From assembly GCA_012295275.1 (NCBI GenBank), contig CM022665.1, positions 8,742,001 through 8,806,000 on the forward strand: a stretch of DNA of 64,000 nucleotides. Direction: 5' to 3'. The stretch comes from Chrysomallon squamiferum. Lineage: Eukaryota > Animalia > Mollusca. The stretch's first letter is position 1. Every line of letters begins with the position of its first letter. Position numbers and translations under genes: made by a program. A model generated the notes under the pieces. That model saw only the letters and a program-made list of their open reading frames with translations. It did no database searches and had not been told where the DNA came from. Below are positions 1 to 24,481 of the stretch, one piece after another.

Positions 1-3000
1 GTGTCATTCTTCAGTTCTGGGAGCTGAAATTAAACATTTTAAAAATAACATTTAGTGGAAAAGTGAATTTTTATTATACAAATACTTGTACTTGAAAATG
101 GCTATGGCTAAAATTTATAAAATAAATATTAAAACTGATTAATACTTTATAAAATAAATTTCTGTTATTCAGTAAAGAAATAACATGGAGTACTAACTGG
201 CTGTGGATGACCTTGAAATGTTTTTGTGAATGTCTTTGACATCTGCTGTGGATAGATTCTTCTTCTTTTGAATGATCTGTCAAATAAAATTTTGATTTTT
301 AAAAGAAATAATAATAATAACAATAATGGTTTCTTAGAACCACAATTTGTGTACATATAGTGAAAAAAAGGAAACAATTGTTCTCAAAATGTATTAAAGT
401 TAATTACATTATTGTCTTCTTTTGTTATTAACAAAGGCTGGTTACAAGTAACAAATAGAGCAATTATTTTTAAAATTTCAAAATATATTTTGGTTTATAA
501 TTACTAATTTCAAGCACCAAAAGTATACATTTTAAAAACAATTAGAAAACATGTAAATTTGTGATTGCAGCTTAATGGGTTTTATGTATGTTCAGAAAAT
601 TAACAGATGTTTTTATATTTTTTTATATTAATGTTATACAGTCATGTATTTAAGCTGCAACATCTCAGAGCTATAAATCTGTAAAGTTAATAAAAACATT
701 ACTTCATAATAATCCTTGCTGATCTTGTTTTCAACAGTCGCCCAATTTCATCATGAGTCATGAAAAATATTAAGTCCTTCTCAGGTATTCTTCCCTGAAA
801 TAAGTATTTGAATTTGAAGATTCTGAAGAATGTAAAAATATATAAAAAATATGTGGGTGTGTGTTCTAAAAAAAAAATTGCATTTAAAAGAACTAGAAAA
901 TGGAAATATAAAATCATTTCTTTAAGATTAATAATAAAGTAATTTTGTTAGTGTTTATCTAGAAAAATAACCAGATAACACCATTAATACATCTTAATAT
1001 TTTATTCAAATAAGTTAAAAATGTTCACTTTAACAAACAAACAAACAAACCTCTTCTACCATGAATCCAGCTAGTTGACGGTAAGCTTTTTTGATAATGT
1101 CTGACATTTTTATCATCTGTGACTATAATAAGAAATAAACTGACTGAATCAAGATATATTATACTGATACAATGTCACAATGTAATTTGTGTTCTATAAG
1201 TAAATGTTTATAAATTGATATAATTTTTATAAATTTTATTTGTTTGTAACATAAGAATAAATAAATCTCAATTTTTGACAATCTTTATTAATTTTTCAGT
1301 GATTAATGGTAATATAGACTGCTAGATTTACACCTTTAACTTTTAAACAGTATTATAAAAAAATAAATTCAAACCTTGGCCCATTCTCTCTGGCTCACAC
1401 CAGCTCTTGCCTTTGGCAGTACAGTTTTCAATATCAGTCTAAAAAAATAATTATATTAAAATTTATTACGGATGTTTATAGTATTCTTTATTTCACTTTT
1501 ATTTTTCCAAAAAGAAATATAATAATTTTTAAATATTAAACAAAAATACTGTGAAACTGAACAAAATATGAATACAAATATGTTAAAAATGTAAGTGAAA
1601 CATATTAAATTACTAATTTTCTTACTTTCCAAAAGTTGTTATTGGTGACTGTAATCTAGAGATAATTTCTGCAACAGTCAACAGTTCTTTTGGTTTTACA
1701 TTGTATGATTTTGCCTTTACTAATGCCTGAAATAATAATAATAATAATAATAATAATAATAATAATAATAATAATAATAATAATAATATGGTGGTAAATA
1801 CAAACATTTTTAATTTAACAGAAATCATTTGAAAACAGATTGTTTTTAACTTGTTCATATAATATAATATGTTTTGCTTTTACCTGTAGAATTACTTTCA
1901 TTAAAACAGAAATGCTAGAGATTAAATATTTTTATAAGTTGGGACAGGGATGGCGGTGACTGGAATGCCATGCTCTGTGAGTTGAAACTATTCCATTAAT
2001 CTTGCAAATTCACAGTTTTATGAAATATATATCATACCAGCCATTGTTAGTTTCATAAATTTATCTAATTTTTATAATATGTCTTAAAAATAAATAAATA
2101 AATGGAAATTATCTTAGTAAAAAAAAAAAATTTGAAGAGTTCGATTTTACCTTGAGAATGTGCATAAGTTTTGCAGGATTTGTTTCCCATGATTCCTCTC
2201 TCATTTCTGCCTGAAACAATTTAAACAAAACAGAATGAGAAAATAGTCTGCTTATGTAATTTTATATTTTTATGGATATCTGATTGTGTGTATATCTGTT
2301 TATGTAAGTGTTCACTTTTTATATTGTGTATATTAATGCAGATTTTAAACATATCCTCCAGTCATTATCATATCTAATAATCTAATTTATAATGGGTTTT
2401 TTAGACCATTTCTCCAAAATTAAGCCAGACATTATTTGAAATTAATTTGTATTTATTTCTAGATAAATATTATATTTATAACAGGATTGTAAATTTTCAG
2501 TTGTAAAATATATCATTTATATCTTTCAGTGAAGTTTTGCATATGCATATATTATAATGTATTTCTTAAAATGGATTATCATGTGACTTTGTGTGTGTGT
2601 GTGTGTGTGTGTGTGTGTGTGTGTGTGTGTCTATAGCCTTATAATATTATCTTGTATTTAGAATATTTATAAAATATATGAATCAATCATTAAAATTTAA
2701 AAACCCCCACCAAATATTCAAAACACAGGTGTGCATATTAATGAATGTTAATAAACTAAAAATATCACCTCTCTGATACATCTGTGTCCATGTTTCTTAA
2801 AAAATGTCACAGTCTTGTTGTACAGCTCTGTGTTCTTCTTTGACATTAGCAAATCAAAGCATTCCTGAAATGCACACATTTATATAATTTTTGTTATTAG
2901 CCTTTTGTGTTAAATTAACATAAATCTGAAAATAATTTTAACAAAAAAAGTAAACATACATACATGAATGCATGCATGTATCTATCTGTGTAAGTACATG

Positions 3001-24000: not shown

Positions 24001-24481
24001 ATCTCTAGTTAGCGTTATACATTGTTACAGACAAAAATAAATAAACGCACGCACGCACACACTATACGCAGTCGGCCCACTTTACTCGCTTTTTCCACGG
24101 TTTTTTGCCGAACACCTAAACACACGCACACAACCCACTTGCATAGATACATACGGCTATGTAACGTAAGGTCACTGGCCACATACTCCAGTTTCAATAA
24201 GTAGGTTAAATTACAATCGGTTCACACGCACAACTATAATTATCATTTATACACACTTTTTTAGTTCCAGTTCTTTCTTTTTCTTATTATCATTGTTGTT
24301 GTTTGTTTGTTTTTTCATTTTTTTATTTTCATTTTTTTTGTTTTTTTTTGTTTTTGTTTTTTTAATACACAAAATATAACTTACCTGGAAGTTTGTAGTG
24401 TTTGTAAGTGTTGGACACACGGTGAAAAAAAGACCACAACACCACGGCACCAACAATAATTGACAACAGCAACAACATCAT
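1..24481 (-). CDS. Multi-exon gene (37 exons in window, 3'-truncated): membrane-anchored PEP-synthase/rifampicin-phosphotransferase (RPH/PigC/YvkC)-like phosphotransferase with N-terminal AttH/CrtC-like domain
   Basis: Hand-spliced exons, all GT-AG with compatible phases: 24481-24385, 22870-22692, 21830-21574, 20996-20931, 20544-20431, 18210-18101, 17466-17411, 16866-16817, 15806-15679, 15190-15043, 14583-14397, 13827-13765, 13435-13386, 12660-12494, 11738-11668, 10476-10409, 10191-10121, 9957-9881, 9484-9367, 9074-8974, 8749-8678, 7919-7813, 7070-6998, 6542-6444, 5957-5790, 4837-4706, 4345-4261, 3774-3686, 3311-3249, 2864-2769, 2210-2151, 1726-1626, 1438-1375, 1122-1051, 794-703, 276-198, 23-1 (3653 nt, ~1217 aa, no stops). 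PPDK_N motifs: VGGKGSQL, VPRGICVT, FAIRSSAAGEDGKEASSAGQLETFLGV, CWASAF, VVIQEMV..DVSGVLFT.DP, ANYGLGESIVSG..NPD, DIEWA....VYVLQCRPVT. RPH-type motifs: NIGEMMPKAVTPLT, HGHRCIRE. The phospho-His domain would lie beyond the window edge. Confidence 0.93.
10845..11637. mobile_element. Non-autonomous Tc2/pogo-type (Tc1/mariner superfamily) MITE, 793 bp, copy 1 (intron 15)
   Basis: TIRs CCGTATATACTTGTGTA...TACACAAGTATATACGG, TA duplications at 10843-10844 and 11638-11639, internal GTATAAGTCGA subterminal repeats, no transposase ORF; second copy at 19123-19915. Confidence 0.92.
19123..19915. mobile_element. Same Tc2/pogo-type MITE, 793 bp, copy 2 (intron 5), inverted relative to copy 1
   Basis: Same TIRs, TA at 19121-19122 and 19916-19917. 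It is the reverse complement of 10845-11637 with scattered substitutions and two small indels. Confidence 0.92.
20160..20408. repeat. Long (CA)n microsatellite; others include (AAT)n 1731-1787, (GT)n 2591-2630, (AG)n 26989-27048, 29641-29714, 32875-32943, (CT)n/(GT)n 56418-56512
   Basis: Directly visible. Confidence 0.97.
24385..24481 (-). CDS. First coding exon of the phosphotransferase gene; hydrophobic signal/anchor MMLLLLSIIVGAVVLWSFF
   Basis: ATG at 24481, 32 codons + 1 nt, strong donor CAG|GTAAGT at 24385/24384, phase 1 matching exon 2 (G-KLYLVKK). Confidence 0.85.

Follow-up and report, generated by a model that had tools for sequence, protein, structure and literature searches.

We analyzed a window of 64,000 nucleotides from the scaly-foot gastropod Chrysomallon squamiferum (GCA_012295275.1, contig CM022665.1, positions 8,742,001 to 8,806,000). 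On its minus strand, from position 24481 to position 1, lies a gene that joins a predicted membrane anchor, a double beta-barrel like that of the bacterial 25-phosphosteroid lyase (25-PSL), and a phospho-histidine dikinase of the rifampicin phosphotransferase (RPH) type. The domains, catalytic residues, homology and gene linkage reported here were observed directly. On balance, and with modest confidence, we consider it likely that the product is a single-chain enzyme that dehydrates a lipophilic alcohol at the expense of ATP. A relative of each module was already known, and one bacterium was known to dehydrate by a kinase plus a lyase. What appears to be new is a phospho-histidine dikinase paired with a 25-PSL-like barrel, which occurs as two genes in bacteria and as one anchored chain in animals. 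A literature search (subscription papers and supplements lay outside its scope) found no publication on the animal family, including DUF7064, DUF7065, PF27448 and PF23212, in agreement with an earlier note on this DNA that had named no established function. Nor did it find the dikinase-barrel pairing, the bacterial two-gene form or the anchored single chain in animals.

Splicing, a check that the earlier note had proposed, gave 37 exons and 1217 codons with zero stops, and GT-AG borders were found at 36 of 36 introns (163–2220 nt). One exon used as query fetched protein P0001 of Gigantopelta aegis (1312 aa), and the N-terminal region of P0001 then fetched 24 proteins, whose named sources were molluscs, a nemertean, an echinoderm and an annelid. 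The spliced protein was 60% identical to P0001 across 1190 columns and 35–49% identical to the remaining homologues. In trees it grouped with P0001 within gastropods.

The dikinase and the barrel

Two of the three dikinase domains fall inside the window. The ATP-grasp domain (PPDK_N; residues 444–756, 7902..14459, minus strand) carries K451, R553, T572, E738, Q750 and R752, and the RPH-type acceptor domain (residues 777–1210, 198..7841, minus strand; PF27448, Rph_4th, in the homologues) carries R1125, E1126 and K1129. The acceptor-domain motif of the subfamily is T-x-x-N-I-G-E-M-M-P-x-A-V-T-P-L. We compared these residues with those important by mutation in RPH-Lm (from excerpts of PMC4844700), whose numbering was transferred via an aligned RPH that passes NF041857. 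K451, R553, T572 and E738 correspond to Lys22, Arg117, Thr136 and Glu297, and R1125, E1126 and K1129 to Arg666, Glu667 and Lys670. All nine RPH catalytic positions falling inside the window were retained. The ATP-grasp and RPH-type middle domains described in the earlier note stood. The equivalent of the phospho-accepting His825 was retained in 22 of 23 fused relatives, that is, proteins carrying barrel and dikinase in one chain. The complete order of ATP-grasp, Rph acceptor and His domain was present in P0001 and in 21 of the 24 homologues. In P0001, Pfam placed PPDK_N at 428–747 and the His domain at the C-terminus (1227–1297), with nothing beyond.

The nearest solved relative of this half by sequence was the Listeria RPH (E 4e-84), as it was by fold when a model of the oyster orthologue was used (1134 aa, pLDDT 84, pTM 0.83). 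The likeness to RPH-Lm (PDB 5FBS-5FBU, 5HV1-3; excerpts of PMC4844700) covers the ATP-grasp, acceptor and C-terminal His domains and the seven residue equivalents. In contrast to RPH-Lm, the fused protein adds an anchor and a barrel, and its pocket reads NIGEMMP instead of GHQQMMT. Membership in RPH was rejected: three orthologues scored 372, 386 and 357 bits on NF041857 against a cut-off of 999, and a common clade had a p-AU of 5e-123. PigC/RedH (NF052631, NF052632) share the domain order and phospho-histidine chemistry on a hydrophobic acceptor. Membership there was rejected as well, with NF052631 scores of 316–323 against a cut-off of 1300, a p-AU of 0.0008 for a shared clade, and no prodiginine genes. 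Both p-AU tests used 23 rows and a quick LG+G4 tree.

The barrel occupies residues 92–403 and is encoded by exons 2–11 (14580..22694, minus strand); it is DUF7064/DUF7065-like and a relative of 25-PSL. The earlier note had reported a motif-bearing region of about 370 aa; the region is present, and the barrel proper is about 310 aa. The three motifs noted there are real, with HYEQWG at 18197, RDHSFG at 18116 and GRGLTE at 15071 on the minus strand. Exon 6 (18101..18210, minus strand) holds HYEQWG, with the H243 codon at its head, and RDHSF, whose D271 (codon at 18113) corresponds to Asp176 of 25-PSL. Exon 7 (17411..17466, minus strand) encodes L277 (codon CTT, 17461) in place of an arginine (25-PSL Arg182), and R284 is present. 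The window barrel retains H243, E245, Q246, R270, D271, H272, W279, R284 and E398, whereas it has G116, W241 and L277 where relatives have R, Q and R.

Matches to PF23212 (DUF7064) were found in 8/10 orthologue barrels at E up to 1, the best at 32.1 bits against a cut-off of 24.7, and the Atlas score for DUF7064 was 0.96; PF23213 matched 3/10 under its cut-off. A model of the Haliotis orthologue barrel (pLDDT 81) was a double beta-barrel. 25-PSL topped its Foldseek list (E 4.8e-11) and superposed with a VIA Z of 23.1 (root-mean-square deviation 4.1, 272 aligned), an outcome repeated with the oyster model. Other folds scored close to this: AttH (2ich) 22.3, a tie within 1 of 25-PSL, kievitone hydratase 21.2, Fsa2 20.2, and pericyclases 19–20. 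Thus the AttH/CrtC-like barrel expected in the earlier note stood as an AttH-type double barrel, but its top match was 25-PSL, and a CrtC Pfam match was found in 0/10 barrels. AttH NE1406 (2ICH), kievitone hydratase (7A0Q), Fsa2/CghA/Phm7 and CrtC share the barrel fold (Z 19–22) and gave no significant sequence match; unlike them, the fused barrel has an arginine-rich core and an obligate-looking link to a kinase.

Sequence profiles discriminated better than fold and pointed to 25-PSL. For a profile built from 28 stand-alone barrels it was the sole significant PDB match (E 7e-8), and a profile of 29 bacterial barrels matched it too (E 6e-5). The matched segments were D-x-Y-Y-F, Q-x-G, R-D-R-S-W-G-V-R and G-x-G-x-x-E-F. 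A profile of animal barrels only (A3) had nothing significant in the PDB, 25-PSL included, and a query with a distant Novosphingobium barrel had no match. With the broader profiles, full-length similarity to 25-PSL comprised three short segments only; hhalign against a full-length 25-PSL homologue gave 44% over 56 columns.

Comparison of two 25-PSL entries, the product complex 9g4c (phosphate and product) and 9fzn, revealed D176N as the sole difference over residues 4–360, suggesting that Asp176 is catalytic. Its pair Arg175-Asp176 corresponds to R270-D271 in the window, both retained. The equivalents of Arg146, Arg177 and Arg182, whose phosphate role is putative, are H243, H272 and L277, so that none of the three is retained. 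A histidine at position 177 occurs too in the full-length 25-PSL homologues L046 and L061, described below, and Arg182 is retained in most relatives. Four barrels (P0024, P0031, P0159 and L005:1252-2289) had weak matches to NF053593, the Rv3169 family, at 22–40 bits against a cut-off of 150; Rv3168, the neighbour of Rv3169, we take to be an APH-like kinase.

Linkage of the two modules in bacteria and animals

When GTDB was scanned with barrel motifs alone, 25 loci were recovered, and in 23 of them a dikinase gene lay directly downstream of the barrel, either overlapping it or starting no more than about 40 bases away. The hosts were Spirochaetota, Bacteroidota, Chlorobiota, Bacillota and an Acholeplasma. 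Whole cassette dikinases (n = 21) scored 200–317 bits on a profile of the animal acceptor domain, versus 0–52 bits for control dikinases from plasmids (n = 10, chosen by hand among 30 listed of 318 matches; three were checked RPH and two were checked PigC). A barrel was found within 1.8–3 kb of 0/10 of these controls.

A second search began from the dikinase and covered 401 genomes of one phylum, of which 21 held 24 places, one of them cut by a contig end. Among the 11 places scoring at least 199 bits, eight had a barrel upstream, two adjoined a full-length homologue of 25-PSL (E 8.5e-41 and 3e-28), and one had neither. Four of the 11 seem to repeat loci of the barrel-first search, leaving seven new ones (4 + 2 + 1). 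The two 25-PSL homologues adjoining subfamily dikinases are L046:3905-5008 (+, genome G228) and L061:3941-5056 (-, genome G088). At the remaining RPH-like places a barrel was found within 1.5 kb in 0/12, a flank possibly too short for partial matches; with controls pooled, a barrel occurred at 0/22 other RPH/PigC-like loci.

In a tree with 14 outgroup rows (quick search, mixture model), a branch with SH-aLRT 100 set apart the fused and barrel-linked dikinases, among them the pair adjoining 25-PSL homologues. The subfamily of this dikinase is a distinct one that accompanies such barrels in bacteria. Because the cassette loci are kin by descent, they cannot be counted as separate events. Two signals are independent: the swap to a barrel of 25-PSL type, and the barrel fused to an unrelated kinase. 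We scanned for a recurrent third gene (328 open reading frames in L001-L024, with 16 chosen neighbours) and found none beyond close kin, nor any recurring biosynthetic genes. The neighbourhood therefore does not name the substrate, and the lack of a constant third gene fits a self-contained salvage or detoxification unit.

Some loci departed from the common pattern. One cassette variant (L022:6962-9374) has its dikinase in two frames, and one genome (L043, L060) has a dikinase without an adjacent barrel as well as a full cassette. At one spirochaete locus a UbiE/COQ5 methyltransferase gene (L016:9369-10076, -) converges on the cassette, a single case that gives a weak hint of prenyl-quinone substrates. 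One subfamily dikinase that groups among the bacterial ones, P0220, carries a name from Candidatus Heimdallarchaeum endolithica.

Named animals with the fusion were molluscs, a nemertean, an annelid, a flatworm, echinoderms, arthropods and a shark. A barrel-profile search of 1.84 billion representatives gave 1303 matches. Among the 150 listed were fused proteins, stand-alone barrels from animals (anchored, near 410 aa), barrels from bacteria (near 340 aa) and barrels behind another domain. In 6/44 scanned proteins that other domain was an EcKL/APH kinase, which is unrelated to the dikinase. This chain appears to be an independent kinase-lyase fusion. In protists, P0101, P0116, P0127, P0159, P0160, P0154 and P0183 combine an anchor, an EcKL/APH kinase and a barrel (R-D-R-A-F-G) in one chain; two such fusions are protist transcripts, and one member is source-labelled Batrachochytrium salamandrivorans.

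Of 28 stand-alone animal barrels, 24 formed their own clade (support 97) and 26 retain D271, a count that is partly circular in that these barrels are themselves part of the conservation yardstick described below. A clade of unannotated anchored barrels, each near 410 aa long and with its motifs intact, has members in a hemichordate, a nemertean, a shrimp and insects (P0031, P0035, P0039, P0041, P0050, P0065 and P0073). The stand-alone anchored barrels are candidate free lyases for the arthropod fusions. In P0162 (871 aa), possibly a decayed fusion, the part that comes after the anchor and barrel matched neither Pfam nor the dikinase profiles. As to expression, a tick midgut contig named PEP synthase (phosphoenolpyruvate synthase) with a signal-peptide tag, possibly of the fused family, was 451-fold up in partly fed ticks alongside lipases (excerpts of PMC5099782). 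Further animal mentions, in the parts of PMC9113151 and PMC11011141 consulted, were labels alone.

The gene model and its surroundings

Exons were mapped by tblastn with 24 homologues, which gave collinear exons from 22871 to 195; the spliced model runs from an ATG at 24481 to position 1. Borders were set from homology, reading frame and GT-AG sites, and the model is a prediction. Four RNA runs contained 7–10% of the sequence words of 14000–22000, a share that we do not take as evidence of splicing. All on the minus strand, exons 1–8 lie at 24481-24385, 22870-22692, 21830-21574, 20996-20931, 20544-20431, 18210-18101, 17466-17411 and 16866-16817. Exons 9–16 follow at 15806-15679, 15190-15043, 14583-14397, 13827-13765, 13435-13386, 12660-12494, 11738-11668 and 10476-10409, and exons 17–24 at 10191-10121, 9957-9881, 9484-9367, 9074-8974, 8749-8678, 7919-7813, 7070-6998 and 6542-6444. 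Exons 25–32 are at 5957-5790, 4837-4706, 4345-4261, 3774-3686, 3311-3249, 2864-2769, 2210-2151 and 1726-1626, and exons 33–37 at 1438-1375, 1122-1051, 794-703, 276-198 and 23-1. A pseudogene was rejected, the reading frame being open through all exons in the window.

The window edge cuts exon 37 (1..23, minus strand) at its start, in the linker toward the His domain, where it aligns to P0001 residues 1185–1191. By that alignment it stops about 75 codons short of the histidine, so that about 110 codons, including the phospho-histidine domain, lie beyond the window. The phospho-histidine motif that the earlier note expected downstream is accordingly absent from the window exons, and its proposed SHxAI form was not matched; the motif SHGAVVARE was found in 21/24 homologues, the other three being shorter isoforms.

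At the opposite end, a signal anchor was predicted by hydropathy at residues 1–19 (24425..24481, minus strand; Kyte-Doolittle 2.57), as the earlier note had seen, and the oyster model has a helix at 2–19. Residues 20–60 contain 11 K/R and no D/E. An anchor trailed by basic residues suggests, by the positive-inside rule, a membrane-anchored enzyme that faces the cytosol.

The observed/expected CpG ratio was 0.15 in coding sequence past exon 2 versus 0.98 in exons 1–2. Depletion of CpG in coding sequence is typical of a methylated, expressed invertebrate gene body. Upstream of the gene the ratio was 0.8–1.0 across 24000–36000, which is likely an unmethylated promoter or intergenic region, and it was 0.1–0.2 in most flanking gene bodies. 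A 404-codon open frame at 61439-62650 (+), S/T/N-rich, of low complexity and with no Pfam match, together with CpG depletion across 36–64 kb, suggests a second gene. More candidate exons, also with no Pfam match, lie at 53408-53683 (-), 53724-53909 (-), 58427-58699 (-) and 36540-36725 (+). Intron 5 holds an AC microsatellite of 125 copies (20161-20409), and an Rfam scan of the window gave no matches.

The proposed reaction and its rivals

We propose the two reactions, the sequence in which they occur and the class of substrate by analogy. Modeled on RPH, the ATP-grasp domain would split ATP into AMP, Pi and a phospho-histidine. The His domain would then swing to the acceptor domain and phosphorylate a hindered, probably tertiary hydroxyl, perhaps on a membrane-borne isoprenoid or sterol-type chain. 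By analogy with 25-PSL, the Arg/His cluster of the barrel would hold the phosphoester, D271 would act as acid/base, and phosphate would depart to leave an alkene, a step that may be weakened in the window copy. The enzyme would most likely serve to salvage, repair or detoxify hydroxylated lipids from the diet or the membrane.

This scheme follows Sterolibacterium, where excerpts of PMC7411048, PMC8449060 and PMC11061730 describe 25-HSK as phosphorylating a tertiary C25 alcohol, after which a lyase eliminates the phosphate to give a delta-24 alkene. The same excerpts describe the tertiary phosphoester as being as energy-rich as the beta-gamma bond of ATP (Keq 0.34); with an ester so ATP-like in energy, the step would be better driven at the cost of two anhydride bonds, as in a dikinase. 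The fused protein and the 25-HSK/25-PSL pair of S. denitrificans (PDB 9FZN, 9G2I, 9G4C) have in common a homologous barrel with Q-x-G, R-D-x-S-x-G-x-R and the Asp of the product complex, a coupling of kinase to barrel, and the proposed logic of phosphorylation followed by elimination. They differ in that the bacterial enzymes are two soluble proteins, whereas the animal protein is one chain with a predicted anchor, and in that 25-HSK is an ATP-to-ADP kinase with a ternary-complex mechanism (excerpts of the same papers), whereas the animal protein is a phospho-histidine dikinase. Because 25-PSL is the nearest solved relative of the barrel and the dikinase subfamily is linked to such barrels, net dehydration via a phosphoester is likely, rather than stable phosphorylation. 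Rather than acting as a binding module, the barrel probably catalyzes a second step. The two-module anchored architecture of the earlier note stood.

Several points weigh against a dehydratase. Hydratases and pericyclases superposed at similar Z, so the chemistry is not decided by fold alone; identity of the fused barrel to 25-PSL is 13–15%, and the fused barrel has a helical insert. The role suggested for Asp176 comes from a PDB entry, and our literature search found no publication on the 25-PSL structure. At the positions of Arg146 and Ala148 in 25-PSL, the barrel family carries H243 and E245, which are nearer to the His/Asp pair of the CrtC hydratases (excerpts of PMC4717167). Our yardstick was a set of 55 non-fused barrels, in which 24 core positions were conserved at 85% or more. 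The window barrel retained 21 of the 24, the exceptions being R116G, Q241W and R277L, and most named mollusc orthologues kept 22–24, with Elysia at 18. R116 was present in 54/55 yardstick barrels, and R277 and D271 in 53/55 each. With these arginines lost, the window copy could carry out phosphorylation alone. Its phospho-accepting histidine lies beyond the window edge, and one bacterial barrel (L009:2925-4070) belongs to a genome with no subfamily dikinase. In all six named arthropod fusions the barrel lacked both H243 and D271 and kept 12–15 of the 24 core positions; a dikinase can thus persist beside a dead-looking barrel, and the window copy may be part-way to barrel loss.

The main rival is accordingly a kinase only, as in the earlier note, kept in play because the window barrel is without two conserved arginines. 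Here a lipophilic alcohol or phenol would end up as a stable phosphate ester, with the barrel only binding or delivering the substrate or passing the ester to a separate stand-alone barrel. Its case draws on the three substitutions, on the contrast between the arthropod fusions and the stand-alone anchored barrels that mostly keep D271, and on RPH itself, which stops at the phosphoester (excerpts of PMC4844700). We nevertheless think it unlikely. Unlike the arthropod barrels, the window barrel keeps most of its core, including H243, E245, R270, D271, R284 and E398; its identity to P0001 (65%) is no lower than that of the ATP-grasp domain (64%); and 25-PSL also has no Arg at the position equivalent to 116. 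More improbable still seems a reversed order: the barrel would first add water to a prenyl double bond, or open an epoxide, and the new tertiary alcohol would then be captured by the dikinase in the form of a soluble phosphate. The His243-Asp271 gap of 28 residues is like that of His239 and Asp268 in the CrtC tetrad His239/Trp241/Tyr266/Asp268 (excerpts of PMC4717167), and both CrtC and kievitone hydratase, close in fold, hydrate prenyl double bonds. Compared by offsets, with no CrtC sequence in the alignment, the His and Asp spacing was similar and the Trp and Tyr were absent at matching offsets. Against this order stand the lack of a CrtC Pfam match, the three or four near-invariant arginines (R116, R270, R277, R284) that suggest an anion site, and the full-length 25-PSL homologues paired with the same dikinase subfamily.

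Phosphate could also serve as the leaving group for ring closure or substitution instead of elimination, on the model of a condensing or cyclizing enzyme (PigC, tocopherol cyclase). The Atlas score of 0.94 for tocopherol-cyclase-labelled clusters, the shared fold of pericyclases, and an acceptor motif nearer to PigC (GE at 786–787) than to RPH all speak for it. Given that a clade with PigC was rejected and that biosynthetic genes did not recur beside the cassette, we regard it as very unlikely. A PEP synthase, as automatic annotations have it, is hardly credible and was rejected. The source-given names and an ATP-grasp that resembles PEP synthases favor it, but orthologues scored 297–323 on TIGR01418 against a cut-off of 740, the His domain comes last, and P0001 has no pyruvate-binding C-terminal domain, as the earlier note had anticipated in setting the protein apart from pyruvate-type enzymes.

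Extended to the whole family, the dehydratase reading becomes tentative, and we hold the following to be possible though rather doubtful. Bilaterians from flatworms and molluscs to sharks would carry an ATP-dependent lipid dehydratase of an ancient bacterial kind that removes tertiary hydroxyls from isoprenoid or sterol chains via phospho-histidine transfer and phosphate elimination, for example from 25-hydroxysterols to delta-24 sterols like desmosterol. In arthropods, and perhaps in the scaly-foot lineage, phosphorylation would fall to the fused protein, its barrel dead, and elimination to a stand-alone anchored lyase.

In invertebrates and chondrichthyans, the genes of this large and conserved family carry the labels PEP synthase or rifampicin phosphotransferase-like, without a function. 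The 25-PSL link and the compact bacterial cassette turn these labels into a specific, testable reaction: a gain of 80 Da, then a loss of 98 Da, with ATP converted to AMP. D271N is the diagnostic mutant, expected to trap the phosphoester, and the bacterial proteins offer small soluble stand-ins. The only other ATP-dependent dehydration named in the excerpted text of PMC8449060 is NAD(P)H-hydrate repair. If true, dikinase-driven dehydration in animals would be an added step in animal lipid or sterol metabolism.

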